Shown one piece after another: positions 19,111 through 52,067 of a stretch of DNA of 64,000 nucleotides. This DNA comes from a virus. Taxonomy: Duplodnaviria; Caudoviricetes. The stretch spans positions 1 to 64,000 of the IMG/VR virus record IMGVR_UViG_3300027740_000003, one strand, 5' to 3'. Numbering within the stretch: position 1 is the stretch's first letter; the number at the start of each line of letters is the position of its first letter. The notes below the pieces were generated by a model. It saw nothing but the letters and a program-made list of their open reading frames with translations, was not told the origin of the DNA and did not search any database. Both the position numbers and the translations under genes were made by a program.

Positions 19111-19431
19111 TTATCCAATTATATCTATTATAGAAAGCTCTTCATCTGATGCTTCTTTGAAGAAAAGCATGTCATCTTCGTCTACAATCATAGATAGCCC
19201 CAATTTATTATCAGACTTGCAATAATACCCATTCTCGTATCTTAAATTATGCTTAGACTTACAATAATATCCTTTCTCGTATTTTAAATACGAAGACTCA
19301 CCCTTCTCTATAGAGGTCAATTGCCACAATACATTATTAAAACACTCTCTAAAATATCCACTGAAATATTTTTCACAAATATAATCCTTTCTTTCATCGT
19401 CAAGAATATATTTCTTTTGTAATGTTTGCAT
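19111..19431 (-). CDS. Hypothetical protein ending EELSIIDIIG
   Basis: 106-aa ORF; variant of the shared C-terminal tag. Confidence 0.6.
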   Translation of the reverse strand: MQTLQKKYILDDERKDYICEKYFSGYFRECFNNVLWQLTSIEKGESSYLKYEKGYYCKSKHNLRYENGYYCKSDNKLGLSMIVDEDDMLFFKEASDEELSIIDIIG

Positions 19432-19709
19432 TATTCGATTATATCTTTTATTATTTTACAAGTTTTACATAAATCTTTCATTTTAACAAACGAAAAGAAA
19501 ACACATTCTATATAATCTATAGACACATAGGTATCAGTATCAGATTTAAATTCAATATATTTTCTACAACATGAGGAACAGGCAGTATAATACAATACAA
19601 AATCTGTGTCAAATAATATGTTAAAAAATACCCTAGCTAATAAAAGCATCGGAAAAATTACTAATATTATAATTAAAAGAACGTTAATTACATAAAATAT
19701 AATATTCAT
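19431..19709 (-). CDS. Membrane-anchored Cys-rich protein ending IIKDIIE
   Basis: N-terminal TM, CxxC pairs, tag. Confidence 0.6.
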   Translation of the reverse strand: MNIIFYVINVLLIIILVIFPMLLLARVFFNILFDTDFVLYYTACSSCCRKYIEFKSDTDTYVSIDYIECVFFSFVKMKDLCKTCKIIKDIIE

Positions 19710-19712
19710 TTG

Positions 19713-19982
19713 TTATTCGATTATATCTTTTATTTTAACACATTCAAAACACAAATCTTCATTATTTAATTTTCTGGAAAACTTCCTACAAGAAGAGCAC
19801 CTGAATGTTAAAAAGTTTTTAATATATTCTATTATATTTATTTCCTGTTTTCCTTTACAATATCTGCAAGTTTTAAACTTGAGAGGAGTTGACTTGAAAG
19901 AACTATACGCAATTCCTTGAAGACAAAAAGGACAAATTCCGTTAAGATAATAAAATATAGATAGAATAGTACAATTAATCAT
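19713..19982 (-). CDS. Zn-finger-like protein ending KIKDIIE
   Basis: CPFC..CRYC..CSSC..CFEC, tag. Confidence 0.6.
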   Translation of the reverse strand: MINCTILSIFYYLNGICPFCLQGIAYSSFKSTPLKFKTCRYCKGKQEINIIEYIKNFLTFRCSSCRKFSRKLNNEDLCFECVKIKDIIE

Positions 19983-21330
19983 CTAAATCTTTTTCTTCTA
20001 AATCATCATCGTCATCCTCATCCTCAGAATACTTCCCAACAAATGAGTTCATATCATCAATATATTTAACAACCTCATCAAACGAGGTATACTTCAATTG
20101 AATAAGAACTTCTTTCAACCAAGCCCCGGTCATTTTTTCTGATTTCTCTGCAATAATATTTAACAAATCATCTTCTATATTTACATTAAATATCTTTGCA
20201 TATCCTTTAAGTATATCTAATCTTTCATTTTGATCGGGAAGATTAAATCTAACAATAGTATCTATCCTTCCAGGACGAAGAAAAGACTCTTCCATTTCTT
20301 CTGTCTTATTTGCTGTTAAAATAATAGAAACATTTGAATTGGTTTGTTTAATATGATCTAGAGTTGTAAGAAGCTCTGGTATTTTATAACTATGAGCCTT
20401 ATCAACATCGTCTACAATAATAAAATTGGGAGACAGCACATCAAATAAGAACCTAAGATTCGTTTCCGAAGTATTATGAAGCATATTAGCTCCCATTCTG
20501 ATAATCTTTCCACCAGATTCTGTAGCAAATCTTAAAGCCAAAGTGGTTTTGCCGGTTCCTGGTTTGCCCAGGAACAAATAGGTTCTAGATATATTGTCAA
20601 GAACAATCCTGCCATGCTTTTCTTTAAGTTCTTTTAGCCTTTCTGAGGCTCCTCCAAAAGCAGGAGGGTTAGGATAAGGGAAAGTTGAATAGCCGTATTC
20701 TTCGCCTCCAATGCTTGGGATTGAGCATACCTCAATCCTACCATCGTTCTTGTCCCAAATCATCTGGGACAGTTTCTTAAAATCAACACCTTTCGAATGG
20801 AAAAATACATCCCTGTAAATATATTCCCCGGCAAGATCTACCTCAACCAGAATAAAATCACCAATATCTTTATGTTTCAAAACAAGAATAGACTGATGAT
20901 CTTCAATAGGATCTCTGTCTACAACATCAAATACATCTAACATTCCGGTGGAAACAAACATATTAACAAAATGTTTATTGTTTTTAAATACGGCATCGTA
21001 TTTATTGCAAATAATCTGCATCTTACTTCTTTTGTCTCCCATAGACATAATTTTATTAATTATATTAGCAACTTTAATGCCTCCAGTAAATATATTATCT
21101 TGTTTATTAGGAAGGCTGGTAGATATTTCCGAGGCCACATTGAGTAAAGTAAAAGCATTAGATTTCAAATAAAACCAAGCCTTTTTTGTCAACGAATCAT
21201 TAGATTGTTTTTTATCACGTTTTGTTGGAGCTTCATTTTTCAATGAAGGATCATATCTGTCATTTTCAATGATAGCACGAACGTCTTCCATTATTTCAAT
21301 CCATTCTTTACGATTTGTTTGTGTTTCCAA
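19975..21330 (-). CDS. AAA+ ATPase
   Basis: GKPGTGKT, IIVDDVD, RPGRID second region of homology; acidic tail. Confidence 0.9.
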   Translation of the reverse strand: METQTNRKEWIEIMEDVRAIIENDRYDPSLKNEAPTKRDKKQSNDSLTKKAWFYLKSNAFTLLNVASEISTSLPNKQDNIFTGGIKVANIINKIMSMGDKRSKMQIICNKYDAVFKNNKHFVNMFVSTGMLDVFDVVDRDPIEDHQSILVLKHKDIGDFILVEVDLAGEYIYRDVFFHSKGVDFKKLSQMIWDKNDGRIEVCSIPSIGGEEYGYSTFPYPNPPAFGGASERLKELKEKHGRIVLDNISRTYLFLGKPGTGKTTLALRFATESGGKIIRMGANMLHNTSETNLRFLFDVLSPNFIIVDDVDKAHSYKIPELLTTLDHIKQTNSNVSIILTANKTEEMEESFLRPGRIDTIVRFNLPDQNERLDILKGYAKIFNVNIEDDLLNIIAEKSEKMTGAWLKEVLIQLKYTSFDEVVKYIDDMNSFVGKYSEDEDDDDDLEEKDLDD

Positions 21331-21944
21331 TGTTCATCTGTTTGAACATGGTTTTTTCTCACATACTTAGCAATAGATGTTTGGAACTGTTCATCAAAGA
21401 AACCTCCCTCGATTCTAATAACCAACCCTTCTCTTTCGTCCCCATAAAAAGATGGCCTCTTAGCCTCTTCAAGAATATAGTTTTCTAATTGTTTCTCGGA
21501 AAAGAACCATTTGTTTTTTGCAATAACTGGAACAGTTAATAATCCAAGGCTTTCAGCTATTGTTTCAACTGTAGGCCACATATACCAAGCGGATTCTTTG
21601 TCATCATCGTATCTTGCTGCAAAAATCATCAGGTATGCAGGCAATGAATCATAATAAATAGAATGTTGTGCAAATAACCATTCTCCATATATAGAAACAT
21701 TCTTTGGAAGAATATATTTAATAGAAGCGTGAATTGATTTTAATTGATCAAATGAAGGATGGTTAGGAGAACCCGAATGGCTTCTAGCAAAACAATTATC
21801 TTTGGAAAGAAAGACATTAGACCCGTCTAATTTTTCCGTAATTATCAATGGTTTGTTCAGCAGGCACGAGACATTATGCATAATTTTATCATCATTACTT
21901 GCTCCTGGGGAGAATGGAAGATGATATGTTCGTGGGTATTTCAT
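21291..21944 (-). CDS. Compact RNA ligase-family nucleotidyltransferase
   Basis: KYPRTYHLPFSPG, TEKLDGSN, YGEWLFA, EGLVIR, AKYVR. Confidence 0.8.
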   Translation of the reverse strand: MKYPRTYHLPFSPGASNDDKIMHNVSCLLNKPLIITEKLDGSNVFLSKDNCFARSHSGSPNHPSFDQLKSIHASIKYILPKNVSIYGEWLFAQHSIYYDSLPAYLMIFAARYDDDKESAWYMWPTVETIAESLGLLTVPVIAKNKWFFSEKQLENYILEEAKRPSFYGDEREGLVIRIEGGFFDEQFQTSIAKYVRKNHVQTDEHWKHKQIVKNGLK

Positions 21945-21989
21945 TGAATTATATTCCTGATTTTAATGCTGCATTGACGATTATGATTT

Positions 21990-22181
21990 TTAGTGTCCTG
22001 TCCAAAAATCAATGTATAGCGGCGACCCATAATTAGCATAATCACCATAACTATTATTATAGTTGTTATAGCCATTGTTGGCATCATCTAATATTCTTTC
22101 AATAGGAGATAATACTTCTATAATATCAGTTTTGTTAGCCAAACGTTTTAAGGCTGTTTGTCGTTTTATATATGTTTTCAT
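21990..22181 (-). CDS. 63-aa hypothetical protein (repeat copy 1)
   Basis: Identical to 22578..22769. Confidence 0.55.
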   Translation of the reverse strand: MKTYIKRQTALKRLANKTDIIEVLSPIERILDDANNGYNNYNNSYGDYANYGSPLYIDFWTGH

Positions 22182-22255
22182 ATTATTCCTTGTTATTGAA
22201 TTTATTTGGTCAATAATTATTCTGCTCTATTATACCCATTATCATTAGTTTAACT

Positions 22256-22465
22256 TCACAATATAATATCTTTAATTATTAATTCGTCTTTTAAAGACTG
22301 CAAGTTGAATGATTTGGGGAAAAGGTGGTCATATAATTTAGATTCTTTTATTATAATATCATTTCCTTGTTTATTTTTCAAAATCGGAAACGACTCTGAA
22401 AGCAATAAAGCATAATCAATTTTATTTTTCAGAAGTTTTTTCCTAGTATTAGCTCCAAACTCCAT
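22256..22465 (-). CDS. Hypothetical protein ending DELIIKDIIL (possibly 5'-truncated)
   Basis: Frame stays open upstream of the ATG to the repeat junction. Confidence 0.5.
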   Translation of the reverse strand: MEFGANTRKKLLKNKIDYALLLSESFPILKNKQGNDIIIKESKLYDHLFPKSFNLQSLKDELIIKDIIL

Positions 22466-22577
22466 CCCTTTTGTGAAAAAAGAAAGATATTTTAATTCTG
22501 AATTGAAGATGATATGTTCGTGGGTATTTCATTGAATTATATTCCTGATTTTAATGCTGCATTGACGATTATGATTT

Positions 22578-22769
22578 TTAGTGTCCTGTCCAAAAATCAA
22601 TGTATAGCGGCGACCCATAATTAGCATAATCACCATAACTATTATTATAGTTGTTATAGCCATTGTTGGCATCATCTAATATTCTTTCAATAGGAGATAA
22701 TACTTCTATAATATCAGTTTTGTTAGCCAAACGTTTTAAGGCTGTTTGTCGTTTTATATATGTTTTCAT
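22578..22769 (-). CDS. 63-aa hypothetical protein (repeat copy 2)
   Basis: Identical to 21990..22181. Confidence 0.55.
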   Translation of the reverse strand: MKTYIKRQTALKRLANKTDIIEVLSPIERILDDANNGYNNYNNSYGDYANYGSPLYIDFWTGH

Positions 22770-22946
22770 ATTATTCCTTGTTATTGAATTTATTTGGTCA
22801 ATAATTATTCTGCTCTATTATACCCATTATCATTAGTTTAACTTCACAATATAATATCTTTAATTATTAATTCGTCTTTTAAAGACTGCAAGTTGAATGA
22901 TTTGGGGAAAAGGTGGTCATATAATTTAGATTCTTTTATTATAATA

Positions 22947-23282
22947 TCATTTCCTTTCTGTTGTCCCAACAGATCCTGCCGCTCTATAAGCTGCTAAAAC
23001 TGTTATATGATTTATAGATTTTTCAGGACACAAAGAAATTCCACGTTTTATATTTGAAAATATATTTGTTGTAATTTTAAATTGTAATGATTTATTTCTA
23101 TTATTAGGATTAATAGGAAATTCAATAAAACTATCTAAATCTGTTAGACAGGTTTCTTCTGATAATTTCTTTAGTCCCGATTTGTTTAATAAATAAACGG
23201 TGTCAAAAATGATTGGAATATATTTAATATAATTATGATCATCTCTAATATAGAGATAGTCAACAGTATATTCACCCATCAC
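22947..23282 (-). CDS. Hypothetical protein terminating at the repeat junction
   Basis: 111-aa ORF; stop lies just inside repeat copy 2. Confidence 0.5.
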   Translation of the reverse strand: MMGEYTVDYLYIRDDHNYIKYIPIIFDTVYLLNKSGLKKLSEETCLTDLDSFIEFPINPNNRNKSLQFKITTNIFSNIKRGISLCPEKSINHITVLAAYRAAGSVGTTERK

Positions 23283-23532
23283 TTACTACCACCTCTCCAA
23301 TTGGAATAGACAAAACCTCTGTGTTCGACGATATCAACACAAGATTTTCCTCAGTAATTTTTAGGAACTCAAACTCATCCCCATTATAAAGAACTTTGAT
23401 TCCAGGTTTGAAAAATTGATTGCTCAATATCTTCTCTGCATCATACCAGTTGCTTTCAGCAGTAGAAGATCTGTTGTTAATAGATCTTATCTGCCACAAT
23501 TTGTATGCAAGCTCTCTAACAGATTGTTCCAT
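23272..23532 (-). CDS. Hypothetical protein
   Basis: 86 aa; RELAYKLWQ...NWYDAE resembles DUF2934-like motif. Confidence 0.55.
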   Translation of the reverse strand: MEQSVRELAYKLWQIRSINNRSSTAESNWYDAEKILSNQFFKPGIKVLYNGDEFEFLKITEENLVLISSNTEVLSIPIGEVVVSDG

Positions 23533-23900
23533 TAATTAATTGGTCCGTTCTTTTTTGGATCATATCCGGCTGTAGTAGCCTGGCTATTATTCATCATAGC
23601 TTCAAACATACTCTTGCTATTATTCATTAGCCTTTCGTTCATTTTAGCCTCTTCTCGATCTAAATCGAGAACACCAGCAATATTGTCAACCAAATTATAA
23701 ATGCACCACAAAGCAAATAGAGCTTTGTGCTTTGGAGAAAACATAACTGCTCCAACAAGCAGTCCTGTTTTCAACCCATTCTTGAACCATAAATCGCGAA
23801 TACCAAATGCTTTTTCTAAACCGAAATTAGCAAACAATTTTCTATTCATAAAATGACTTGCTAATGTTTTTGCATTTTTAATCAGGTTATCCTTGTCCAT
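23532..23900 (-). CDS. Hypothetical protein
   Basis: 122-aa ORF in an overlapping-gene chain. Confidence 0.6.
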   Translation of the reverse strand: MDKDNLIKNAKTLASHFMNRKLFANFGLEKAFGIRDLWFKNGLKTGLLVGAVMFSPKHKALFALWCIYNLVDNIAGVLDLDREEAKMNERLMNNSKSMFEAMMNNSQATTAGYDPKKNGPIN

Positions 23901-24231
23901 ATTTTTTATCTTTCAGTTCATTGAGTATTGAAAAAATGGAGACATATTCGCCACTTTTCTTGTGTTTGAGAACATAATCACCTTCGTCCCCTTTGTCAAG
24001 GCAGAACTCACTGATAGAAGGCATATATGGTGCTTTAGGAATAATAAGCTCTTCTGCGTATGTCTGAGGAGAAGGAGATGGATCCGTTGACCTAATTAGT
24101 TGAATAGGCACTCGTTTTCCAGAATACATTTCAAATGCTTCGGCAATTAATATATGTTCCTCCGGACTAACATTAACTTGATCGAAGAAATACCTGAGGT
24201 ATTCTATTTCATTGGCAATAGGTTTGCTCAT
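23887..24231 (-). CDS. Hypothetical protein
   Basis: 114-aa ORF. Confidence 0.6.
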   Translation of the reverse strand: MSKPIANEIEYLRYFFDQVNVSPEEHILIAEAFEMYSGKRVPIQLIRSTDPSPSPQTYAEELIIPKAPYMPSISEFCLDKGDEGDYVLKHKKSGEYVSIFSILNELKDKKYGQG

Positions 24232-24251
24232 ATAATTATGGAATAATATTC

Positions 24252-24923
24252 TTAGAAACCTGCCCCTAATGCAATTCCTGCCCAGGGATTAATATCCTCT
24301 GTCCTGGCTGCATAAGCTAATGCCCCAACGATACCAACTGTGAATGTTTTGCCAAGTGGCTGATAAATTGTTCCACTCAATGTTAGGTCTTGTATCCCTA
24401 ACTCTAAACCCTCATATCCAGAAATGCCACCGGTTAGTTTAATATTTGCTGCGCCGAAAGATGAAGCAAGACCAGAATAAGCATATGCCCCTTTTGTTAT
24501 TACAGGATCAACTGCCACCCCGGCTACTGGATATATAAACAAAGAATTATATGCAGATATATCAATGCTAACTTCGTGCATATAATCATCAACAGGATCT
24601 AATAAAACATATGCAGTATAAAATAGTTTTAGTTCCAAATTTTTTGTTGGACTAATAGTATAACCAATTCTAGGATCTACTTCGTGTGCATTTCCTTTAG
24701 TTGGGAAATAACCTAAGAAACCGCCAGACAAAGACCCAAGTTTAATATCTACCAAGGATTGAAAATTTGGATCAAACAAATCTTCAGACAGAAGATCTCC
24801 TCGCCATACATATGAGCTAGCAGTAAGAACTTCTACATATCCTTCGGTTTCTGCTTGGGCCTGGAAAGAATTTAAACCAATTAATGAAACAATAGCAATG
24901 ATGATATTATTTTTCATTTTCAA
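24252..24923 (-). CDS. Outer-membrane beta-barrel protein (TIGR02001/Gcw_chp-like)
   Basis: Signal peptide ending AQA, SSYVWRG motif, alternating amphipathic strands, terminal Phe. Confidence 0.7.
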   Translation of the reverse strand: MKMKNNIIIAIVSLIGLNSFQAQAETEGYVEVLTASSYVWRGDLLSEDLFDPNFQSLVDIKLGSLSGGFLGYFPTKGNAHEVDPRIGYTISPTKNLELKLFYTAYVLLDPVDDYMHEVSIDISAYNSLFIYPVAGVAVDPVITKGAYAYSGLASSFGAANIKLTGGISGYEGLELGIQDLTLSGTIYQPLGKTFTVGIVGALAYAARTEDINPWAGIALGAGF

Positions 24924-25377: not shown

Positions 25378-25648
25378 ATTATTATTTTTGCATCTATATA
25401 TGATTAGAACTATATTAGATTTAGTCTATGATTATATGTCTTTGAAAAAGGAAGGCAAAGATACCCTTGAGTGTAGGCGCAACTTTGCCAAAGCACTAAT
25501 GGCTTTTATTGATTTCCGCGTCGGAGCAGATGAAAAAGAATTAAAAACAGATGTTATTGATCTGCTCTCCAATGCACCTATCCCAGGATCAGAAAACTTC
25601 GACGAAGAATATAAAGAATGGTATGAAAAAACTAAAGAAATATTCTAG
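25370..25648 (+). CDS. Hypothetical protein on the opposite strand
   Basis: 92-aa ORF occupying a gap between minus-strand genes. Confidence 0.5.
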   Translation: MIILLFLHLYMIRTILDLVYDYMSLKKEGKDTLECRRNFAKALMAFIDFRVGADEKELKTDVIDLLSNAPIPGSENFDEEYKEWYEKTKEIF

Positions 25649-25656
25649 TTTAAACA

Positions 25657-34032: not shown

Positions 34033-35580
34033 TTAGTTCTCCAGGATTTGGAAATCTGTTCTTCGGTTTCTGGCACGACAGATTTCAGTATCATCGCTGC
34101 ACTGTGGCTTGTCAGGTCCATTGCCTACCACTACAAACCTGTTCTGATCCATCTTATGAGTCTCCACAAGATAGCTTACAACAGTCTGTGCCCTGGCCTT
34201 GCTGATCTTCCTATTGACATCAGCACTTCCTGTAGAATCCGTATTGCCCTCAATTCGAATTCGTGATGTGGGGAATGCCTTTGCTTGCTCAACGAACATC
34301 ATATCAATGATTCCTTTGGCATTCTCGTCAAGCTCAGAGCTTCCATGGGCAAAAGACACCCTAACCGGCTTACTAGCAACCGCTTTTGCCGCTACTTCCA
34401 CCTTGGTTGGTGCTGTAAATGCAGCCTTCTTCTCAGCAACCATGCCAATCTCCTGCTCTAAGTTTATCTCTTTGATGAAGGCTGTGTCTACAATCTGAGC
34501 CCAAGGCAGAGATCCGCTGGCCAGATTAAGCTTTCCATATACCGTTGTCATCTTCTCATACAGATCCTTGCCAGTGACGCCAGTATAGCCAGGATTCAAG
34601 CCAAAGAAGTCCAGGTTGTCTCCATATGTAGTAAGCCTAACATTATTGATTGCTCCAATACAGAACTCAGCATCAACCGAAGAGCCCAGTCCATCAGCAA
34701 GTACCTTGGCCGCCTTTGCCTTCACCTCATTGGAAGCATTAATTTCTGCCGCTCCTTTTAGCCAACCACGAACAAGCTTCACAAGCTCTGGCCTGCGTTT
34801 ATTATAGGTAGATTCCTTGATAAAGAACCCATCAGAGATGATATGAGTGGCTTGTTTGGTATTCACAAGGATTTTTGCTCCTGAAACAGCCTGGACACAA
34901 GCGGCATCATCAGGGCTCCAAACCACAGCGGCATCAACTTTGCCAGCCTTGAATGCTGCGGCAGCATCAATTGCTGAGTTTACCTTGACAACATTAACAT
35001 CCATTATTGATAGGCCTGCCATATCGAGCATCCAAAGCAAGAATGTATGTGATGGAGTCGCTTCGGCCACAGCAATCTTCTTTCCAGCAAGATCACCAAC
35101 AGCACCAACATTACCCTTGGTCACGATAGCGTCTCCACCGCGGGACCAATCAGCTTGGAAAAGCCACTTAACCGGCTCACCAAAACTACCCGACTCGGTT
35201 GGAAAGGAATCTATGGTAGACCACATCAGATCCATCTTGCCTGCCTTAAAAGCAGCTCGAGAGGCAGCAAAATCATCCATTACAGAGAAGTTAACACAGA
35301 TGTCGTCTTGATGATATCTCGAATTGGGATTATCTTTAAACCCTCCGTTCCACCACTGGCCACCGATATATCCTCCCCACGTCACCACCCCAATCTCTAA
35401 GCATTTATTCGTGGTTGTAGAAGCTGTTGCAGAAGCAGAGCCTCTCATCATACCAGAAACATCCTGAGCCTTATCTCCTTCTGGAAGAACCAGGGGACGA
35501 AGGAAAATGATGCTACCAACAATCGCGGAAGCAACAAGGACCGTGATTGCAATCTTACCAGCTGGTTTAATTTTTGCCAT
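34033..35580 (-). CDS. NMT1/SsuA-like substrate-binding protein fused to C-terminal OmpA-like domain
   Basis: N-term TM anchor; QADWSRGGDAIV, LAGKKIAV; OmpA: FAHGSSEL, IEGNTDSTG, NRKISKARA, NRRTDF. Confidence 0.88.
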   Translation of the reverse strand: MAKIKPAGKIAITVLVASAIVGSIIFLRPLVLPEGDKAQDVSGMMRGSASATASTTTNKCLEIGVVTWGGYIGGQWWNGGFKDNPNSRYHQDDICVNFSVMDDFAASRAAFKAGKMDLMWSTIDSFPTESGSFGEPVKWLFQADWSRGGDAIVTKGNVGAVGDLAGKKIAVAEATPSHTFLLWMLDMAGLSIMDVNVVKVNSAIDAAAAFKAGKVDAAVVWSPDDAACVQAVSGAKILVNTKQATHIISDGFFIKESTYNKRRPELVKLVRGWLKGAAEINASNEVKAKAAKVLADGLGSSVDAEFCIGAINNVRLTTYGDNLDFFGLNPGYTGVTGKDLYEKMTTVYGKLNLASGSLPWAQIVDTAFIKEINLEQEIGMVAEKKAAFTAPTKVEVAAKAVASKPVRVSFAHGSSELDENAKGIIDMMFVEQAKAFPTSRIRIEGNTDSTGSADVNRKISKARAQTVVSYLVETHKMDQNRFVVVGNGPDKPQCSDDTEICRARNRRTDFQILEN

Positions 35581-39617: not shown

Positions 39618-39800
39618 TTATTTATTCTCCGTATATTCGTAATATCCTACAACATTGCAACAGTCTTCAATGAATTCATATGCATTTTCGATAACACTAT
39701 CTGTTTGTGCTATCTTTTCAGAGCAATTAATTTGCTCTTGTTGAATAAAGTTCTCGACAACATTCCACAGATCAGTTAGTTGTTTCTCGGTTGGTTTCAT
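39618..39800 (-). CDS. Hypothetical protein
   Basis: 60-aa ORF, ATGA overlap. Confidence 0.65.
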   Translation of the reverse strand: MKPTEKQLTDLWNVVENFIQQEQINCSEKIAQTDSVIENAYEFIEDCCNVVGYYEYTENK

Positions 39801-40312
39801 TCTATTATGTCTTTAATTGTTTTTTCGTCATATGTTAGAACATAATTATCTTTACAAACTAGATTAAATAAATCACCAACTGCCGCTGGTCCAACAAATT
39901 TATTTGTAATATTAGGATGAAGTAAAATTTCAGAATAATTTTCTTCTATTTCTGAATCTGAAACTGAATAATAATAACTTCTTCTTATTTTTATAAAAAT
40001 ACTAAGTTCGCCATAACTCGAAATAAACAGCCCAATGTTTTTTATTTTTGCAGCATCAAAACTTGTTTTAAGTTTGCCATAACTACAAAATAAATTTACA
40101 TTAAAATTAATAGTTATAAAATAATGTTCGGTACCAGACAAATCATAACCAACAGTAAATTCTTTTGTATATTTTTTCAATTCTGGAACAAATAACTTAA
40201 CAGTTTGTTTTATTAATTCTAATCTGTACCTATCAGCTTCAATACATTTATATAATCCATTTTCATCTAATAAATTGTTTTTATTATCATTTAACGTTTT
40301 ATGTAATTTCAT
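39797..40312 (-). CDS. Hypothetical protein ending DEKTIKDIIE
   Basis: 171-aa ORF with tag. Confidence 0.6.
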   Translation of the reverse strand: MKLHKTLNDNKNNLLDENGLYKCIEADRYRLELIKQTVKLFVPELKKYTKEFTVGYDLSGTEHYFITINFNVNLFCSYGKLKTSFDAAKIKNIGLFISSYGELSIFIKIRRSYYYSVSDSEIEENYSEILLHPNITNKFVGPAAVGDLFNLVCKDNYVLTYDEKTIKDIIE

Positions 40313-42884: not shown

Positions 42885-42889
42885 TGAGT

Positions 42890-43771
42890 TTACCTTGATT
42901 GAAGAAGTGAGATTTTTTGCAAAACACAAGAAGTATGTTTGTTGCACAACCTGCTGTTAAAAAATAGCTCTGGAACCACACTGCATTTTGCAATATCTAA
43001 TGGACAGATAATCTTTTCACCATCAGGAAATATGTTTCCAAACCTACAACGTTTTACCGTATCAAAGCTTTGCGATTTTGTTCTCAATACTCCCCGTGTA
43101 GCAATATCAATTCGTGGAATGTTCCCACTATATAAATTAATAAATGTTTGTGCTATGTTTGCATAATCGTCATTAGAAATAGTATCTGGCGTATCCTCCC
43201 AATAATCGTTAGTAATAGCAATGTCTCGGATTGAACTAAGATATAACGATGTACAATTAAACCTAGCTTCTGCTTGTGCAGCAAGATCGTATAAACAAGA
43301 AACATTATCTTTGCGCAACATTAATACTATCTTCGTTGGCCAATCTGTTTCTTGAACTTTAGATAACGGCTTTTCGGATGTATCAGATCCTAGAACCCCA
43401 ATACGCAAATCTACATTTGTATTAGGAAGATTTTTAATAGATTCTAGGTGTCTTCCATTGGTGTATATTGTTGTCAATAGATTGCGTTTAATATTCTCAG
43501 AAATAATATCACCAAGCTGTGGATGAAGAAGAGGTTCGCCTCCAAGCAGAGTTATTTTCCCAATATGTTGTGAATACTTATCAAGAATACTACGATAAGT
43601 AGCAAGGCTCATGTCTTGATTATCTAATTTGTGGCCATAAAAACAACCTTTACACCTAAGATTACAACGATTAGTAATGAATACTTGAAGTGTATTTACG
43701 GGCAGTACAGAAATTTCTTGCCATTTTGATTGATCATAATCCAAAATATATGATTGTTTAGATGCAGTCAT
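42890..43771 (-). CDS. Radical SAM protein
   Basis: ITNRCNLRCKGCFY (CxxxCxxC), LLGGEPLLHP, YTNG; Cys-rich C-terminus. Confidence 0.9.
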   Translation of the reverse strand: MTASKQSYILDYDQSKWQEISVLPVNTLQVFITNRCNLRCKGCFYGHKLDNQDMSLATYRSILDKYSQHIGKITLLGGEPLLHPQLGDIISENIKRNLLTTIYTNGRHLESIKNLPNTNVDLRIGVLGSDTSEKPLSKVQETDWPTKIVLMLRKDNVSCLYDLAAQAEARFNCTSLYLSSIRDIAITNDYWEDTPDTISNDDYANIAQTFINLYSGNIPRIDIATRGVLRTKSQSFDTVKRCRFGNIFPDGEKIICPLDIAKCSVVPELFFNSRLCNKHTSCVLQKISLLQSR

Positions 43772-44906
43772 TTTGAACAGACTCTTTCAACCACCCTAGA
43801 TATGTTTTGTCATTACAAACGGCCTTGCTTGGATCAACAGATAGTTTTGCAACTGGCCTGCCGTTTAGTTTTACTAATTTCATTACAATATTTAATGGTT
43901 TTACGCCAGGAATATCATTGGTTAAATGAGTTCCAATTCCATATATGGTTTTGATTCTGCCGTCAGTTTTAGTCTCAATCTGTTGGGCTTTTTTTACAGT
44001 TAATGCGTTGCTAAAAATAGCCGTTTTTCTTTTAGGATCAATGCCACAATTAGAATACATCTCTAGCATTCTATTTAGCCAAACAATCTCATCTCCACTA
44101 TCTTGTCTTACTCCGTCAAAAGTCTTTGCCAAAGAACCAGAAAAGTCTTTTACGAATTTATCTGTACCCAAAGTATCACTAAGAGCAATGCCCAGTTGCC
44201 CATTATATTCTTGTTGCCAGATCTCCAACATTCTTTTCTGAGAATCCATTGGATGAAACAACGCTTGGCCGGCAGAGATCCATTCATGAGCCATTGTGCC
44301 AACGGCAGGAATGTTATTCTGAGCGGCAAAAAGAACATTGCTTGTTCCAATGAATGTGCTTCTTGGAAGAGAAGAAGCTAGTGTTTTAACAACTTGTTCT
44401 TGCCAATACCCAGCTCTTCTTCTTCTTGTTCCCATATCAACTAACTTGATAGGGTTTGCTAATAGCGAAACAATTTTATCATTAAGAATAGCTGTGCCAG
44501 AATTTGCAGCGCAAAATGAATTAAAATATAATTCACTTACAGTGGCGAGAACTGGAACCTCGTACCAAATGGTATTGATCCATGGGCCTTTAATCGTAAT
44601 ATCAAGAAAACCTTGGTCATCAGAGATTTCAACATAACGTTGCGGATTTAGTTTAAAGTTGTCAATATAATCTAGAAAATCTTTGCTGATCCATTTGATG
44701 TTTTCTAATTGGCTAGTAGGTTTAGAAACCGTGGCCCATGTTGAAATCTCATTTATCAAATGATTTTTTAAAAATCCCAGTTCCGTTTCTGCGCCCCGAC
44801 AAATAAATTGATACTCAGCTGTTGCTCCAGGGAAATGATGGAACACAGCTTGAGCCATCGAAAATTTATAAGCGTCTTGATCTAAGAAATTATTCCAAAT
44901 TGCCAT
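43758..44906 (-). CDS. pncB: Nicotinate phosphoribosyltransferase
   Basis: DQDAYKFSM, DMGTRRR, GTSNV, GTMAHEW, LSDT, GVRQDSGD, YGIGTHLT, VMKL. Confidence 0.92.
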   Translation of the reverse strand: MAIWNNFLDQDAYKFSMAQAVFHHFPGATAEYQFICRGAETELGFLKNHLINEISTWATVSKPTSQLENIKWISKDFLDYIDNFKLNPQRYVEISDDQGFLDITIKGPWINTIWYEVPVLATVSELYFNSFCAANSGTAILNDKIVSLLANPIKLVDMGTRRRRAGYWQEQVVKTLASSLPRSTFIGTSNVLFAAQNNIPAVGTMAHEWISAGQALFHPMDSQKRMLEIWQQEYNGQLGIALSDTLGTDKFVKDFSGSLAKTFDGVRQDSGDEIVWLNRMLEMYSNCGIDPKRKTAIFSNALTVKKAQQIETKTDGRIKTIYGIGTHLTNDIPGVKPLNIVMKLVKLNGRPVAKLSVDPSKAVCNDKTYLGWLKESVQNDCI

Positions 44907-45487: not shown

Positions 45488-45516
45488 CGGCTGCCGACGC
45501 AGTAGTAATTTTTATA

Positions 45517-45990: not shown

Positions 45991-45994
45991 TTTA

Positions 45995-46489
45995 TTATAT
46001 CTTTCTTTTTCCTATATTTAGATCTTTATCTTTATCTTTATCTTTATCTTTATCTTTATCTTTATCTTTATCTTTAATTAACTCAAAAGCCTCATGAACA
46101 GATAAAGCTTTTGCTTTTTTAATATCACTATGTTTTGATGTGTTAGTTTTACAAGTTGCTGCTGTTCCTTTTACGATATCTATAAAATCTTGAGAGTGCT
46201 CTCCCGGAATCCACTCAGGAACATTATCCTCTGTTATTGAATCTTCTACTGTTTTTGACTCAATAGAACAGTCTGCAACAATTTCCTCTTCTATATCTGC
46301 TAGTAATTCATAAATCTCCACAAAGGCAGTTTCTAATTCTTTTTGATCATCTACCATTCCAAATACTTTTTTATTAAGTATTTTTAATATTGTCGGAGCT
46401 TTTGCTGACAATAATTGTTTCATCTGCCCTACAGTAGATTGTATAATTTTAATAGCTTCTATTGTTTTCATACTATGAAATGTTTTCAT
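45995..46489 (-). CDS. Hypothetical protein with (KD)9 tract
   Basis: 164-aa ORF. Confidence 0.6.
   Translation of the reverse strand: MKTFHSMKTIEAIKIIQSTVGQMKQLLSAKAPTILKILNKKVFGMVDDQKELETAFVEIYELLADIEEEIVADCSIESKTVEDSITEDNVPEWIPGEHSQDFIDIVKGTAATCKTNTSKHSDIKKAKALSVHEAFELIKDKDKDKDKDKDKDKDKDLNIGKRKI
46023..46076. repeat. Perfect hexanucleotide microsatellite (TCTTTA)9
   Basis: Direct reading. Confidence 0.95.
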
Positions 46490-46498
46490 ACTATGAAA
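46463..46498. repeat. Tandem 18-bp repeat, each unit containing TTTCATA-C-TATGAAA palindrome
   Basis: TGTTTTCATACTATGAAA x2 over the start of 45995..46489. Confidence 0.85.
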
Positions 46499-46645
46499 TG
46501 TGAAAATATTAATAATGATATTTTCGAAACAATCTTTTAAATCGCAGACCTGAGTAATGTTTTGATCTCCAGGTGGGAACTATAAAAATAACCCTCCCTT
46601 TATCATCGCATTCTTTGTCAGGAATAGTGTTCATATATTCAAAAT

Positions 46646-46876
46646 TCATAACAAATACAGGCTACTAACTAAACACAAAGTAAATAACAGCCAACAACCA
46701 ACCACAGCTAAGCTTCTTTTTATTCTTCCACCTAGAACTTCTTTTAGCGTCTTTGTTCCAAATTCTATTTGATCAGATTCAAATTTCCAAATGGAAAAAT
46801 GCCGACCGGTATATAGTACGAGCCAGCTTATGGCCACAAATTCAATTAAAGCCAATACAGCTAATTTAATCATCAT
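46646..46876 (-). CDS. Small two-TM membrane protein
   Basis: Two hydrophobic stretches. Confidence 0.6.
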   Translation of the reverse strand: MMIKLAVLALIEFVAISWLVLYTGRHFSIWKFESDQIEFGTKTLKEVLGGRIKRSLAVVGCWLLFTLCLVSSLYLL

Positions 46877-47114
46877 TTCCTATACACCTTTCAGGATTAC
46901 ACACTATACTGCTGTAAACTCCCCATTCAGCACAAGCTCCAATTGGATGATAACAGTTGTTGGTTGGACAACTGCCGGAAATACAAACCAAACCATCTTC
47001 ACATTGTGAGCTGTCTGTGCAAGGTTTTAAATAACTTTCTTCAGCAGAATTCGTAGCCTCTCCGCTACAGCAGATACAAAACAAGATAACGAATAAACAA
47101 ATGCTACGTACCAT
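46866..47114 (-). CDS. Cys-rich exported protein
   Basis: Hydrophobic N-terminus, CTDSSQCEDGLVCISGSC. Confidence 0.55.
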   Translation of the reverse strand: MVRSICLFVILFCICCSGEATNSAEESYLKPCTDSSQCEDGLVCISGSCPTNNCYHPIGACAEWGVYSSIVCNPERCIGNDD

Positions 47115-47359
47115 GGCTTAACTACCTCCCCAACCGGAACAGATACATCATCAACAATAGATCTATATTTGTAAACTGATTCAATCTCTTTTGGATCAGA
47201 AACAATATGTCTAATTCTAATTACATAATCATCTCCTTCAAAATTAATTTTAGCTAAGCTGGTCCCGTCCCAACATGCTACTTCTACTTGTCGAATCGGG
47301 GGAAGTTCTGTTCTAGAATCTGTTGGAAGAAATGGATAACATGTATAACCAGTAATCAT
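47027..47359 (-). CDS. Hypothetical protein
   Basis: 110 aa, YPF...P.R.V.V..WDG. Confidence 0.5.
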   Translation of the reverse strand: MITGYTCYPFLPTDSRTELPPIRQVEVACWDGTSLAKINFEGDDYVIRIRHIVSDPKEIESVYKYRSIVDDVSVPVGEVVKPWYVAFVYSLSCFVSAVAERLRILLKKVI

Positions 47360-47368
47360 TGTTTGCCT

Positions 47369-47779
47369 CTATTCGATTATATCTTTTGCTATTTTTTCTG
47401 CTTCAGATAATTTCGTTTGTTTAAAATCAACTTCTACCGAATATCCGTTAGAGCTTTCTCCAAGCCAACGAATAGTCAAATACCCTTTAATTGTAGCGAG
47501 TTTGTAGAATGTCCAAACTCCATAGTTTTCTTTTTCAGAATCTTCGTGGACATAATTACTAACCTCTTCTGCCATCACTAAAGGGCTGCCAATAAGATCT
47601 TTAGGATCCCCGCATATATCTTCTATTTCAACCTGCTCGCAACAGTCCTGTTCGTGCTGTAGCTCATATTCAGAACCATCGGAACAAATGAATAATATTC
47701 CGGAACTGCCCTTTTCCAGTCCAGCAATCCTAGTAATGGTTTTTCCAATCATATAAGATATATCAATTTGCTTGTCCAT
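47369..47779 (-). CDS. Conserved phage hypothetical protein ending AEKIAKDIIE
   Basis: HEQDCCEQVEIEDICGD, WTFYKLATIKGYLTIRWLGESSNGYS; tag appended. Confidence 0.7.
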   Translation of the reverse strand: MDKQIDISYMIGKTITRIAGLEKGSSGILFICSDGSEYELQHEQDCCEQVEIEDICGDPKDLIGSPLVMAEEVSNYVHEDSEKENYGVWTFYKLATIKGYLTIRWLGESSNGYSVEVDFKQTKLSEAEKIAKDIIE

Positions 47780-47815
47780 TTTCTATGATTCTTTCTAATG
47801 TTTTATTTAAAAAAT

Positions 47816-47883
47816 GATAGGAAATCGAGAAACCTGTTTTTAATCATTGGTAAATGTAGAAGGAAGGTTTCTTCTGGCCTATC
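47816..47883 (-). ncRNA. Candidate structured ncRNA, unit A
   Basis: GATAGG/CCTATC outer stem, AGAAACC/GGTTTCT inner stem, loop TTCCTTCT..ATTTAC..AAACA. Confidence 0.6.
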
Positions 47884-47892
47884 GTTAGTTGG

Positions 47893-47953
47893 TGATGGGG
47901 AATCGAAAAATCTGTTTCGTAAAATGAGAAGGAAGATTAATCATGGCCCATCA
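47893..47953 (-). ncRNA. Candidate structured ncRNA, unit B
   Basis: TGATGGG/CCCATCA outer stem, AATC/GATT inner stem, same loop motifs as unit A. Confidence 0.6.
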
Positions 47954-47962
47954 TTGTCTTGT

Positions 47963-50002
47963 TCAACCACTTAAAATCTTATTAAGATCTAGTGGAGTGT
48001 AATCTGTTTTCTCCTCGTTTTGGAAGATATATGAAGGTTGTTTTGGACCAACCTTAACTCCTTTATTCGAATATAATACCTGCCCTTTACCTCGACTACG
48101 AACCGACTCTTTGAATAAATCATGTACTGACGGAAGGGTATTTATATATTCCAAGAATGCCGGCATCTGTTCGCTAAGTGTTTGCCCATTCATAGCTGCA
48201 CTTCTAACATTAGACTTCAGATTAGCATCAATATAAATCAGCTCTTTGGTCTTCAAATCAATTAAACAAACATACTTTGTTTTGTACTCTCCAGTAAGTT
48301 TAAACGAAAGCTGACACCGCGATGGTTCAAATAATTTTCCTGCTTGTGGATCAGTTCCCCATTGCAATGCAGCAAAAACATCCTTTGCCGCAGAGAAAGG
48401 AACTCCAGAAAAGCAAAGAATATTCCAGACGGCATATCTAACACCGGATTTTACCAACTTGTCGGGATAGATATCGATTAGTTGTGCTGCTCGACCTTTC
48501 ATATCTGAACTATTACAAGGATCCCCAGAGAAAATAGCAGCATCATGGAAACGATTTGTATTCCAACAACATGCTCCAATCGATTTCCAGTTGGCATCAA
48601 AAAAGTTCCACCCATTATCAAACCAAGTGTTTCCATGTGATTTGTTTTCCCAGTAAGATGCTGTTCGAATAAACTTTACATCGTCTGGAATCTGGAACAC
48701 TGTGCCCCTAGCATAATTTCCTTCATCATTTCCATTTGGAAGCTTGATGGATTCCGTTGCGGGATCTAGGTTGAGAACCTTTGGAACGCGACGAGACAAC
48801 TCTTTCCCAATTGCAGAAGAAATTTTCTTAATACATTCTGCATTTACAGGACGCGGTGAACTAATTTTTAACCTTGCCCAATTTCCCTTGGGAGGAAATA
48901 CCCGATGCTGTCTTAGATTAGCCGTTTCAAGCAAACGCCGAATAGAAACAAGCTGCTGAATTGTTAGTTTAGGAACGATTGAAACAAAAGAACTAGCCGC
49001 ATGTTCCCCAAAGACATCAACAGTATGAACTAGACGCCGCATAAACTCTCCAGGACGAGCCGATAACATATCTAGTACCGCCAGGTCCTTTTGCTTCAAA
49101 AGCTTTTCTACTTTTGAATTAAAAGTTATTAAGCGGTTATTGTAGAGTTTGTCAGCAATATCAACAACGCTAGCATGAGATTCTTTAAAATCTCCGGGGT
49201 GGAGATTGTGAAATAATTTCTTCCATACATTCTTTCTTCTAGCTACATCTTCTGATAGATTATTACACCTATCTAGCATGTCCATTAAGAATCTTCGGGT
49301 CTTTCGATTGAAAGACTTGAACTTAACATTCTCTCGCAATGATACATCACCATCACTTAGTCCAGCTGCTAAACGCAGAACATCAGTAGCTGTCTTTACT
49401 TTAATCTGTATTCCAGAATTAATATAATGTTTAGCAAGACTTACCAGATTTTCTTTAAAAGAAATTTTAGAAAAGTCTACAACATGTTCTTCACTAAGAA
49501 AAAGAACATCTTCAAACTCGCTGTTCTTCCATTTAACTTTAATGGACAGCAATGAGTTCAACACGTTTTGTAATGTGTTTGGTTTCGCAGGCATTAAAGC
49601 AACAGACTTGCGTTCTGTTGGATTCATGTCTTCACGGGGTTTTGTTGGTTCCGTAAAGAGTTCTTTTGGAAAACCCCAATACATAAGGATTTGTGGGATC
49701 CAATATTCAGCTTCGCTCTTTGCTAGAACCTCAGCGGGGAAGTTTTTGTAAACAACAAACTTGCCAATCTTTCGGCTCTCACCAGTGATAAGTTTTAACT
49801 CTTTTTCTACGGCAAACCACCAATTTACTAGAGTAGAATGAGGAAGAACACTGACGGTTTTGTAAAAATCTGGGCTAAGACAATAGCCATAGTATTCCAG
49901 ATTCATTAGAATCGTAGCTAACGCTTCAGTATTTGGCTCTGATGGTTCAGATGTAGGAATCTGAACATAATTGTTTCGCAGTAGAATATTAACGTTATTC
50001 AT
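47963..50002 (-). CDS. Large helical (ROT/TROVE-like) protein with C-terminal TerD-like domain
   Basis: NILLR..LATILMNLEYYGY N-terminus, KENL, RPGEFMRRL, C-terminal FSGD...AAQLIDI...GVRYAVWNILCFSGVPF; start reset to ATG 50002. Confidence 0.65.
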   Translation of the reverse strand: MNNVNILLRNNYVQIPTSEPSEPNTEALATILMNLEYYGYCLSPDFYKTVSVLPHSTLVNWWFAVEKELKLITGESRKIGKFVVYKNFPAEVLAKSEAEYWIPQILMYWGFPKELFTEPTKPREDMNPTERKSVALMPAKPNTLQNVLNSLLSIKVKWKNSEFEDVLFLSEEHVVDFSKISFKENLVSLAKHYINSGIQIKVKTATDVLRLAAGLSDGDVSLRENVKFKSFNRKTRRFLMDMLDRCNNLSEDVARRKNVWKKLFHNLHPGDFKESHASVVDIADKLYNNRLITFNSKVEKLLKQKDLAVLDMLSARPGEFMRRLVHTVDVFGEHAASSFVSIVPKLTIQQLVSIRRLLETANLRQHRVFPPKGNWARLKISSPRPVNAECIKKISSAIGKELSRRVPKVLNLDPATESIKLPNGNDEGNYARGTVFQIPDDVKFIRTASYWENKSHGNTWFDNGWNFFDANWKSIGACCWNTNRFHDAAIFSGDPCNSSDMKGRAAQLIDIYPDKLVKSGVRYAVWNILCFSGVPFSAAKDVFAALQWGTDPQAGKLFEPSRCQLSFKLTGEYKTKYVCLIDLKTKELIYIDANLKSNVRSAAMNGQTLSEQMPAFLEYINTLPSVHDLFKESVRSRGKGQVLYSNKGVKVGPKQPSYIFQNEEKTDYTPLDLNKILSG

Positions 50003-50043
50003 GTTTTGGTCCAAATTGTACTGAGCTCGGCTCGTAGGTATCA

Positions 50044-50072
50044 AGTGTAATCACTTGGGGCCAGGCTGTCAA
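50044..50072 (-). promoter_or_regulatory. sigma70-type promoter for the TROVE-like/TerD gene
   Basis: TTGACA-17-TACACT. Confidence 0.7.
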
Positions 50073-50288
50073 GAGCACGGCCAATTGTTATTTAATATAA
50101 TTTTAAGAACAATATAAACATACACATTTAACATAATAAATGTTATTGTTTTTCTAACAAAAGTAATTATCTTAACAGTAGTTTCTGACCACAAAAAATC
50201 CAATACGTCTGACTCTTCAATAATAGAAAGTTCTAAATGACAAAAATAATAAACACAAACCAAAAGACTAAAAGCAATATTTCAATCA

Positions 50289-50552
50289 TTAGAACGAGTT
50301 TCCATCTGGGCGAAGCATTCTTTCTGGCATGTTTTTGTTATTACATTTTAACCAAGCCTCGATTAATTTTGCATGTTTACAATAATTAGAGCACCTACAT
50401 CCTGGACTATCACAGGACCATTTCTTTTTAGACCGGTGGATAATATAAATTGCTACAGGCTCCTTGTCAAGGTCCCATTTTGATACTTCAAAAGTATCCC
50501 AACGAAGTTCACGAATCAGGTAGCCTACTTCCATTTGGTTCCTATTATTCAA
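50289..50552 (-). CDS. SWIM zinc-finger protein
   Basis: WSCDSPGC...CKHAKLI. Confidence 0.7.
   Translation of the reverse strand: MNNRNQMEVGYLIRELRWDTFEVSKWDLDKEPVAIYIIHRSKKKWSCDSPGCRCSNYCKHAKLIEAWLKCNNKNMPERMLRPDGNSF
50442..50470 (-). promoter_or_regulatory. Possible internal sigma70-type promoter
   Basis: TTGACA-17-TATATT within the SWIM gene. Confidence 0.45.
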
Positions 50553-51063
50553 TAATATCTTTTATAGCCAATTCATCTTCTGATAAGGCTCTAGAGCCGG
50601 CAGGAAACACATATTCTGTTATTCTTTTTATTTTTGGGTTATAGATTTTAATAGAAACTAATTTCTTTTCGGAAATTAATTCCCTGATTATTTTTAAAAA
50701 ATAAGAACATGCATCTTCTTCACCCGGATATTGTTCAAAATCATTTATGTATTCCCCTTGATCAACAATTTCAACAAGCGGGAGTTCAGCATTTGTCATA
50801 AATTTTTGGATAATATTTTTATTCCGTTTATATACATTTTTCACATAATTTTCATTTATGTCAATCCAGAATTTAGGTGTAGTTTTAAACGCCTTTGCTA
50901 AACCTTTTGCGATATTTTCATTTATACAAATTTCATCATAATACAAGTTATACAACTCTTCCGCTGATATACCAGATAATTTTGAAATTTCTTCATCGGA
51001 AAAATTTAAATCTGTCTTTTTTTCACCGAGAACTTCTCCTGGAGATTTTATCTTTCTGTTCAT
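50545..51063 (-). CDS. HigA-like HTH protein with extra C-terminal domain ending DELAIKDIIE
   Basis: SPGEVL...LSGIS...IAKGLAKAFKTTPKFWI. Confidence 0.7.
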   Translation of the reverse strand: MNRKIKSPGEVLGEKKTDLNFSDEEISKLSGISAEELYNLYYDEICINENIAKGLAKAFKTTPKFWIDINENYVKNVYKRNKNIIQKFMTNAELPLVEIVDQGEYINDFEQYPGEEDACSYFLKIIRELISEKKLVSIKIYNPKIKRITEYVFPAGSRALSEDELAIKDIIE

Positions 51064-51094
51064 ATTATTTATCCATACTTTGTTGTGAAAACAA

Positions 51095-51427
51095 TTATGT
51101 TATGATGTCTTTTATCATTAATTCGTCTGGAGATAATTTTCTTAAGTTAGGCAATAGGTTGTTTATAAAATCTGACAAACGCCAATCTCCCTTGTCTTCA
51201 TAAATAACCAATATACTGTTCTGCTTTCTGTTCCGCTTTTTTCTAAAGAATTCCATATAAAATTTAGTAGATTCTAGCCACTTAAAAAAATCAAATTTTA
51301 TTAAATTAAATTTTATTGATATCATTTCATTTTGATGAAAATCAATGCCTAAATTTTTTAAACAACAATCATTAAGAACAACATATTCACCCTCAGATAT
51401 AAAACACTCTAGAATTACTCTGTCCAT
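51095..51427 (-). CDS. Paralog family member 1 (tagged)
   Basis: ILECFISEGEYVVLNDC...LPNLRKLSPDELMIKDIIT. Confidence 0.7.
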   Translation of the reverse strand: MDRVILECFISEGEYVVLNDCCLKNLGIDFHQNEMISIKFNLIKFDFFKWLESTKFYMEFFRKKRNRKQNSILVIYEDKGDWRLSDFINNLLPNLRKLSPDELMIKDIIT

Positions 51428-51450
51428 ACTACGCCTTAAATTTAATTATA

Positions 51451-51786
51451 TTAAGTAATAATGTCTTTTATCATTAGTTCGTCTGGAGTTAGTTTTTTAA
51501 GATTGGGAAGAAGGTTGTTTATAAACGCATCTAAAGTAGGCAAACCATTGATATATTTAGTATTTTCCCAAATAGCAAGATTAAATCTTGCGCCACAAAT
51601 GATTAAAACAAAACTATGTAAAATCATTTTAGGATTGGGGTTTAAAACAATTTTTTCTTCACGAAATTTAACTTGTACCAATTCGTCTTTATTAAACGGA
51701 TAATAGCAACTACAATCATTCAGGACAACATATTCTCCTTCCGATATAAAACACTCTAGAAATATTTTGTCGTTAGGAAATCTCAT
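51451..51786 (-). CDS. Paralog family member 2 (tagged)
   Basis: FLECFISEGEYVVLNDC...LPNLKKLTPDELMIKDIIT. Confidence 0.7.
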   Translation of the reverse strand: MRFPNDKIFLECFISEGEYVVLNDCSCYYPFNKDELVQVKFREEKIVLNPNPKMILHSFVLIICGARFNLAIWENTKYINGLPTLDAFINNLLPNLKKLTPDELMIKDIIT

Positions 51787-52067
51787 GTTATGATGTCTTT
51801 TATCATTAATTCATCTGGAGATAATTTTCTTAAGTTAGGCAATATGTCGTTTATAAAATCTATTAAATGCCGAGTATCAAAATCATAATTAATACAAAAC
51901 CCAGTATATCCATAATCTCTATTTTTTGAGATGATTAAATAGTTTTCATCAATTTTAACTTGTACCAATTCGTTTTCATAAAACGGAAAATAACAATAAC
52001 AATTATTCAGGACAACATATTCTCCGTCCAATATAAAACACTCTAGAATTATTTGTTGGTTATTCAT
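51783..52067 (-). CDS. Paralog family member 3 (tagged)
   Basis: ILECFILDGEYVVLNNC...LPNLRKLSPDELMIKDIIT. Confidence 0.7.
   Translation of the reverse strand: MNNQQIILECFILDGEYVVLNNCYCYFPFYENELVQVKIDENYLIISKNRDYGYTGFCINYDFDTRHLIDFINDILPNLRKLSPDELMIKDIIT

Follow-up and report, generated by a model that had tools for sequence, protein, structure and literature searches.

The window analysed here is a 64,000-nucleotide stretch of virus DNA (Duplodnaviria; Caudoviricetes), positions 1 to 64,000 of IMG/VR record IMGVR_UViG_3300027740_000003. It forms the start of one jumbo-phage contig of 435,004 bp and 35% GC. About one gene in seven of this phage ends in the same short peptide, usually IKDIIE, set flush with the stop codon. 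This C-terminal tag is real, terminal and far beyond chance. We judge the chances about even that it is a portable, gene-encoded C-terminal docking handle whose free C-terminus is recognized by a single common partner; both the docking and its target are what we infer. The literature searched holds no description of such a tag. It matches none of the known tag families tested and appears to be undescribed, as a first-pass annotation of the window had supposed.

That annotation had noticed the ending on ten open reading frames (ORFs), always flush with the stop. Six-frame translation places all ten endings at the reported stops, on the minus strand, and adds an eleventh that had not been listed, with its stop at 22844, in a duplicated copy. 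The scale is much larger in the whole genome. A simple gene caller gave 741 genes, 105 of which end in [IVM]-I-K-[D/N]-I-I-x-stop. The exact ending IKDIIx-stop is found in 82 of the 741 called proteins, compared to 0.002 expected from composition and a maximum of 1 in 1000 shuffles, and IKDII occurs internally once in 136,403 residues. When a looser pattern ([IVLM][KR]D[IVL]I-x) was applied to stop-to-stop frames of at least 30 amino acids (aa) in all six frames, 109 of 120 occurrences were flush with the stop. The remaining 11 are internal, in unrelated proteins, and resemble loose chance matches. The annotation was correct for the ten window genes, but missed the scale of about 105 genes, the spread over a phage clade and the overlap with translational-coupling signals.

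The tagged proteins are small (median 96 aa) and enriched in Ile, Lys, Asn, Tyr and Phe. Their genes lie in the most AT-rich tracts, as had been claimed: the GC content of tagged genes is 27.2%, versus 35.5% for the window (p = 1e-5) and 36.2% genome-wide (p = 1e-41). The GC content of tagged genes lies 2-10 points below that of the other genes of the same genome in each of the five phages examined. Many tagged genes are found in tandem arrays, and hardly any tag lies in the 200-340 kb region of the genome.

The bodies that carry the tag are unrelated, which agrees with the initial impression from the window. Tail-stripped tagged proteins form about 69 BLAST families, including 55 singletons and 14 families with several members. 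A Pfam scan of 101 tagged proteins revealed DUF4116 repeats in 10, DUF7448 in one and a few weaker matches. PHROGs assigned helix-turn-helix (HTH) families and otherwise families of unknown function. Within the window, the bodies are Cys-rich proteins, a probable membrane protein, an HTH protein, a DUF7448 protein and three paralogues. The annotation had proposed that the tag is appended, and comparison of the DUF7448 protein with its homologues bears this out. Among the best-scoring 120 of 940 matches, 118 lack the tail and stop just past the domain; only the query and one 71%-identical relative possess it. The DUF7448 domain acquired a tail, indicating that the tag is a portable, appended module.

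Related phages contain the same tag on different proteins. With a strict pattern, a complete 458,729-bp relative in IMG/VR has 36 tags of the form I[KR][DN]II[E/T/Q], a 28.7-kb fragment has 6, and a 131-kb fragment with 28% GC has 20, mostly IIKNIIE. The two complete genomes (435 kb and 458 kb) have 232 genes in common, but only 2-3 tagged counterparts, in which the tag is kept. The scarcity of tagged orthologue pairs indicates that the tag outlives its carrier proteins. A metagenome scan found at least 111 loci; among the matches listed, 77 loci contain 203 in-frame tags with the same consensus. The tag-bearing relatives are soil, sediment and groundwater phages, with IKNIIE variants and almost wholly different carrier proteins. 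The window sequence itself is present in soil metagenome runs and in a small share of one groundwater run. Of the phage-database entries, Xanthomonas phage XacN1 matches a window protein best (43% identity); it has only 24 genes in common with this phage, and the tag was not found in it. Positions 47,000-52,500 of the window had no megablast match among GenBank phages. When 185,579 bacterial and archaeal genomes were scanned with the pattern, 31 matches were obtained, nearly all in very short frames. The tag is effectively absent from these cellular genomes, and host mimicry was rejected on this basis.

The extended consensus of the tag spans about 12 residues, L-[S/T/C]-x-[D/E]-[E/C]-h-[M/I]-I-K-[D/N]-I-I-x-COOH. 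The tag begins with an S/T..E capping box or with the second CxxC of a zinc ribbon, at fixed spacing. Five of the final eight residues are hydrophobic, and exactly one residue, which is variable (E/Q/L/T/K/I), follows the Ile pair. The single variable residue fits a reader of the free C-terminus. AlphaFold2 models the C-terminus of the DUF7448 protein (47369-47779) as a helix at residues 126-135, with a mean predicted local distance difference test score (pLDDT) of 90.6 and tail blocks at 95 and 91. A C-terminal helix at residues 100-109 is modelled with moderate confidence in the 51095 paralogue. The tag is therefore predicted to be a short amphipathic alpha-helix on two unrelated bodies.

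The codon pattern reveals selection on the peptide, which had been inferred from the window alone. The three Ile positions use ATA, ATT or ATC, with occasional Leu or Val codons; ATC, CTG and GTN all occur, and AAA, AAT and TAT never do. The Asp codon is GAT or GAC, all three stop codons (TAA, TGA and TAG) are used, and there is no conservation in the DNA past the stop. Since codon changes are only synonymous or conservative, selection acts on the peptide. However, the synonymous variation that had been reported, although real, is not free. AAG encodes the Lys of 46 of 97 tags (47%), compared with 11% of Lys codons in the bodies of these genes (p = 2.5e-19). AAG or AGG is present in 43 of the 67 tags whose stop overlaps the next start, versus 7 of 37 others (p = 1e-5). 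Stop/start overlap is itself found in 66% of tagged genes, 26-27% of untagged genes in the same arrays and 22% of genes elsewhere. AAG-GAY reads AAGGA, which in an ATGA overlap lies 14 nt before the next ATG, and Shine-Dalgarno (SD)-like motifs peak at -14 to -10 genome-wide. Of the 67 overlapping starts, 28 have an SD-like motif derived from the Lys-Asp codons, mostly AAGGA, at -14, and another 10 have it at -17. A coupling junction with an SD-like motif 10-14 nt before an overlapping start is thus present. Nonetheless, IKDIIE is perfect in 69% of tags with overlap and in 61% without (p = 0.40), indicating the tag is not merely a coupling signal. Conservation by RNA alone does not account for the tag: the amino acid is preserved, and uncoupled genes keep the peptide. 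Taken together, the codon pattern and the link between AAG and overlap indicate a peptide signal with an RNA signal laid over two of its codons. Lys-Asp codons that double as the SD of the next gene clearly illustrate how constraints on peptide and RNA can overlap.

In the docking-handle reading, the helix would dock through its free C-terminus on one common partner, phage-encoded or host. A single constant machine would thereby accept many variable bodies, which would serve either as interchangeable adaptors (substrate receptors) or as cargo. The tag is kept by purifying selection on the peptide, while its unrelated, small, AT-rich carriers turn over almost completely between related phages. 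The Lys-Asp codons also supply the SD of the next gene where stop and start overlap. The three window paralogues fit a binder with a constant handle, since the N-terminal part and the tail are conserved around a hypervariable middle. Near-total turnover of carriers with a constant tag is expected of host-takeover or anti-defence repertoires, and such genes could thus be recognized in uncultured phages by the tag sequence. If the tag is a docking handle, about 100 orphan proteins in each genome would be assigned to a single pathway, the peptide could be used directly as bait for the hub, and foreign proteins could be sent there by attaching it.

A more specific version of this reading, which we consider rather unlikely, is that the tagged mini-proteins are interchangeable substrate receptors for host or rival-phage targets, with the helix connecting each of them to a single machine, such as a ClpP-linked or Cdc48-like AAA+ unfoldase. 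The receptor bodies would be the zinc ribbons with hypervariable inserts, the helical-repeat proteins and the three window paralogues. If true, this would be a phage equivalent of targeted degradation by F-box/PRANC proteins, with arms-race turnover of the repertoire. Like the poxvirus ankyrin/PRANC proteins, the tagged proteins are a large, fast-evolving family with variable bodies, here including DUF4116 helical repeats, and a constant C-terminal element, although the partner is here only proposed. Unlike PRANC, a domain of about 40-60 aa that binds eukaryotic Skp1, the phage element is about 12 aa long, and the Pfam scan of the 101 tagged proteins found no PRANC or F-box match. The effectors of the Legionella Dot/Icm system likewise have a Glu-rich C-terminal signal on hundreds of unrelated proteins, one coupling complex and fast turnover. 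However, that signal is degenerate, has no fixed heptapeptide and serves a bacterial secretion system.

Several candidates for the partner are encoded by the phage. A ClpP gene (410,663-411,280 of the genome; Pfam score 180 bits) adjoins a gene for a DksA/TraR-type zinc-finger protein (411,285-411,686), both on the minus strand. The ClpP is apparently genuine, as judged by a Ser-His-Asp triad spotted by eye in its sequence. Several related contigs contain the conserved block MoxR - VWA-peptidase - ... - DksA - ClpP - protein of about 480 aa - DUF192 - FtsK-like. Further products of the phage are a second AAA protein and the pair formed by a MoxR ATPase and a VWA protein, the latter with conserved HExxH and MIDAS motifs. 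A MoxR-vWA-peptidase pair and ClpP are described in some jumbo phages in the passages of PMC7824862 that were searched, and those passages mention no such tag. The genes for MoxR and VWA are the sole non-tagged genes near tags in all three larger phages, and the pair lies inside tag arrays. A tag-like N-terminal stretch of the VWA protein was dismissed as a general feature of the VWA protein family.

The partner may instead come from the host. A complete small phage in IMG/VR (36,869 bp, with direct terminal repeats) has two tagged genes. It shares with the 435-kb phage a tail-fibre protein (64-67% identity), an endolysin, RuvC and a lipoprotein metalloprotease. These common genes suggest that the two phages probably share a host and have exchanged genes. 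The presence of two tags in a small phage with common host-contact genes would be compatible with a host protein as reader. A 221-aa protein that the 36.9-kb phage also encodes was considered as partner and rejected. It has no Pfam or PHROG match and adjoins lysis genes, and its tag-like N-terminal helix is absent in the 458-kb relative.

Four observations weigh against a docking handle. First, the helix begins only about 2 residues past the folded body in both AlphaFold2 models. Part of its hydrophobic face may therefore pack on the body and not be free. Second, the strong tie of tagged genes to stop/start overlap makes a ribosome-level role possible. Third, MoxR/VWA was rejected as a tag-specific partner, because the MoxR-VWA-DksA-ClpP block of four relatives, one of which has a 67%-identical MoxR, is tag-free within 6-10 kb on either side. 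Fourth, homologues of PDZ (PDZ_2), S41, Lon and proteasome proteins were not found in the phage genome, whereas the PDZ_2 and Peptidase_S41 searches matched control genomes; a reader for a ligand of the PDZ/tail-specific-protease type is thus not available in the phage genome. Modelled as a complex with Mg, Zn and a 40-aa tagged tail, the VWA-metallopeptidase (417,643-418,836 of the genome) scored 0.00, which counts neither for nor against docking.

Alternatively, the tag may be a degron or timer that marks its carriers for scheduled clearance by an AAA+ protease, for instance host ClpX or ClpA with phage ClpP, or a phage Cdc48-like unfoldase. C-terminal degrons typically have such a terminal position, at a set distance from the carboxylate. 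Moreover, the phage has ClpP, a transfer-messenger RNA (tmRNA) and a Cdc48-like AAA protein encoded directly upstream of three tagged genes. The tmRNA gene (97,812-98,149 of the genome, minus strand) was identified by ARAGORN, with tRNA-Arg and tRNA-Tyr nearby, and its tag peptide, ANDNADLTAAAA, differs in sequence from the C-terminal tag. The SspB XB motif and the ssrA tag are the nearest parallels, as short peptides at the extreme C-terminus that couple a protein to one machine. However, the phage tag is acidic and helical, compared to LRVVK or ...LAA, is encoded by about 105 genes, is without a long flexible linker and has a docking function that is so far putative. Its ends are I-I-[E/Q/T/L], not the non-polar ...LAA-COOH of ssrA-type (ClpX C-motif-1) tags. 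The degrons known for ClpX, ClpA and Tsp lack structure and are non-polar, and an acidic C-terminus is usually protective; the phage tag is acidic, helical and tight on the body. In addition, the phage AAA proteins lack the IGF-type loop needed for ClpP docking, and the ClpP block is also found in relatives without nearby tags. We consider clearance by proteolysis unlikely.

It is quite unlikely that the tag is a virion-packaging signal, which would bring a large set of small proteins into the very large capsid, to be co-injected. Fast-evolving small proteins would suit an anti-defence cargo. Many ejection proteins are described in giant phage heads (PMC7411985), which also favours packaging. 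However, the tagged genes are neither in nor beside the head module (major head protein gene at 298,570-299,583), the complete 36.9-kb phage also has two tags but few genes in common, and about 100 cargo species would be unprecedented. Encapsulin cargo peptides and the T4 capsid-targeting sequence are also short, portable peptides; they sort proteins into an HK97-fold shell, and the encapsulin peptides are, like the tag, C-terminal. Unlike the tag, encapsulin peptides are extended and Gly/Ser-rich, with the cargo gene beside the shell gene, whereas the tag is predicted to be helical, is acidic/hydrophobic and is encoded far from the head gene. The features of an encapsulin cargo-loading peptide are thus not found. 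The T4 signal is N-terminal and cleaved by a gp21-type prohead protease, whereas the tag is C-terminal. A Peptidase_S77 search of the phage gave no match, but the control genomes were also unmatched.

A role in the nascent chain is also quite improbable. Here, the last 12 or so residues would slow release in the ribosome tunnel, allowing the ribosome to re-initiate on the overlapping gene, and the mature tail would be functionless. The position flush with the stop is exactly as predicted, and both the excess of overlap among tagged genes and the SD at -14 within the tag codons are in accord with it. Like translational-coupling junctions with ATGA and an SD inside the upstream gene, 38 of the 67 overlapping starts have a tag-derived SD-like motif. 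Unlike the tag, ordinary junctions fix no peptide of 7-13 residues, and the tag persists without coupling, being equally conserved on 38 uncoupled genes. The S/T..E or zinc-knuckle capping at fixed spacing looks like a constraint on a folded protein. No feature known from arrest peptides, such as a terminal Pro, is recognized in the tag.

It is still less probable that the tag is a self-association helix, by which tags would bundle to give homo- or hetero-oligomers or a common assembly. Ile-rich short helices often bundle, and the wide non-polar face formed by five of the last eight residues needs burial. However, a helix of about 1.5 heptads is short for a stable bundle, and the invariant Lys, the Asp/Asn and the one-residue rule point instead to a stereospecific reader. 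Finally, it is highly improbable that the tag is a by-product of DNA or RNA constraint or of descent, that is, a duplicated gene junction (SD, AU-rich spacer and ATGA) or the best-kept part of one diverged family: the AAG enrichment tied to overlap, the tandem arrays and the 14 multi-member families suit this explanation, but it is largely excluded by the codon pattern, in that substitutions preserve the amino acid and not AU-richness, nothing is conserved past the stop, uncoupled genes keep the peptide with AAA, and the DUF7448 domain gained its tail.

Two further known motifs also differ from the tag. The sliding-clamp-binding motif has the consensus QL[SD]LF and the tail of single-stranded DNA-binding protein (SSB) the consensus DDDIPF. 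The phage tag fits neither, having no Gln or aromatic residue at the required positions.

The tagged genes of the window and the adjacent AAA ATPase gene are listed in Table 1.

Table 1. Tagged genes of the window and the AAA ATPase gene upstream of three of them (coordinates are window positions).
Position	Strand	Product	C-terminal end	Remarks
19111..19431	-	ORF with degenerate tag, 106 aa	...EELSIIDIIG-stop (TAA)	No Pfam or PHROG match
19431..19709	-	ORF, 92 aa, hydrophobic N-terminus (probable membrane helix), C-terminal CxxC	...CKIIKDIIE-stop	Stop overlaps next start (TAATG)
19713..19982	-	Cys-rich ORF, 89 aa, weak zinc-finger match	...CVKIKDIIE-stop	Directly downstream of AAA ATPase 19975-21330
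19975-21330	-	AAA ATPase, single module		Nearest to D2 domain of Cdc48/p97/VAT (E = 3e-27)
22256..22465	-	ORF, 69 aa	...DELIIKDIIL-stop (TGA)	
22844..22969	-	Shorter second copy of the 22256 gene	Identical to that of 22256	Inside tandem duplication
39797..40312	-	ORF, 171 aa	...YDEKTIKDIIE-stop	ATGA at stop (GAATGA)
47369..47779	-	DUF7448 domain (residues 10-118) with appended tail	...KLSEAEKIAKDIIE-stop (...AEKIAKDIIE)	
50545..51063	-	ORF, 172 aa, N-terminal HTH	...LSEDELAIKDIIE-stop (...DELAIKDIIE)	HTH is phrog_1381, antitoxin-like
51095..51427	-	Paralogue 1 of 3, 110 aa	...LSPDELMIKDIIT-stop (...DELMIKDIIT)	
51451..51786	-	Paralogue 2 of 3, 111 aa	...LTPDELMIKDIIT-stop (...DELMIKDIIT)	
51783..52067	-	Paralogue 3 of 3, 94 aa	...LSPDELMIKDIIT-stop	ATGA overlap with next start

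Three tagged genes directly follow the AAA ATPase gene, as had been observed, and their stops and starts overlap or nearly do so. The N-terminal domain of this ATPase (about 245 aa) is of no recognized type, its tail is acidic, and two related phage records contain matches with 26-28% identity. The 693-aa protein encoded at 47963-50044 (minus strand) is not an AAA ATPase; it is without a Walker A motif and has no Pfam match. It is a member of phrog_33734, with 43% identity to XacN1 ORF396. A tandem duplication at 21912-23087, with 588-bp spacing and at least 300 nt at 100% identity, doubles one tagged gene and its neighbours. It could be a very recent event or an assembly artefact.

Tagged genes are also found near tubulin homologues. 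A PhuZ-like homologue (218,299-219,666 of the genome, minus strand; phrog_4733, E = 1e-6) has a tagged gene immediately upstream, and in the related 28.7-kb fragment a tagged gene lies about 0.8 kb upstream of such a homologue.

The window encodes further recognizable proteins, all on the minus strand. Three are related to nicotinamide adenine dinucleotide (NAD): a synthetase of the glutamine-dependent NAD synthetase type (10695-12626; CN_hydrolase and NAD_synthase), a nicotinate phosphoribosyltransferase (43758-44906) and a nucleoside 2-deoxyribosyltransferase-like protein (2087-3241). An Rnl2-type RNA ligase is fused to a tRNA-binding domain (12696-14009). The others are a protein-kinase-like protein (6801-8492), a periplasmic-binding-like protein with an OmpA domain (34033-35580) and a UvrD-type helicase (55128-56873).

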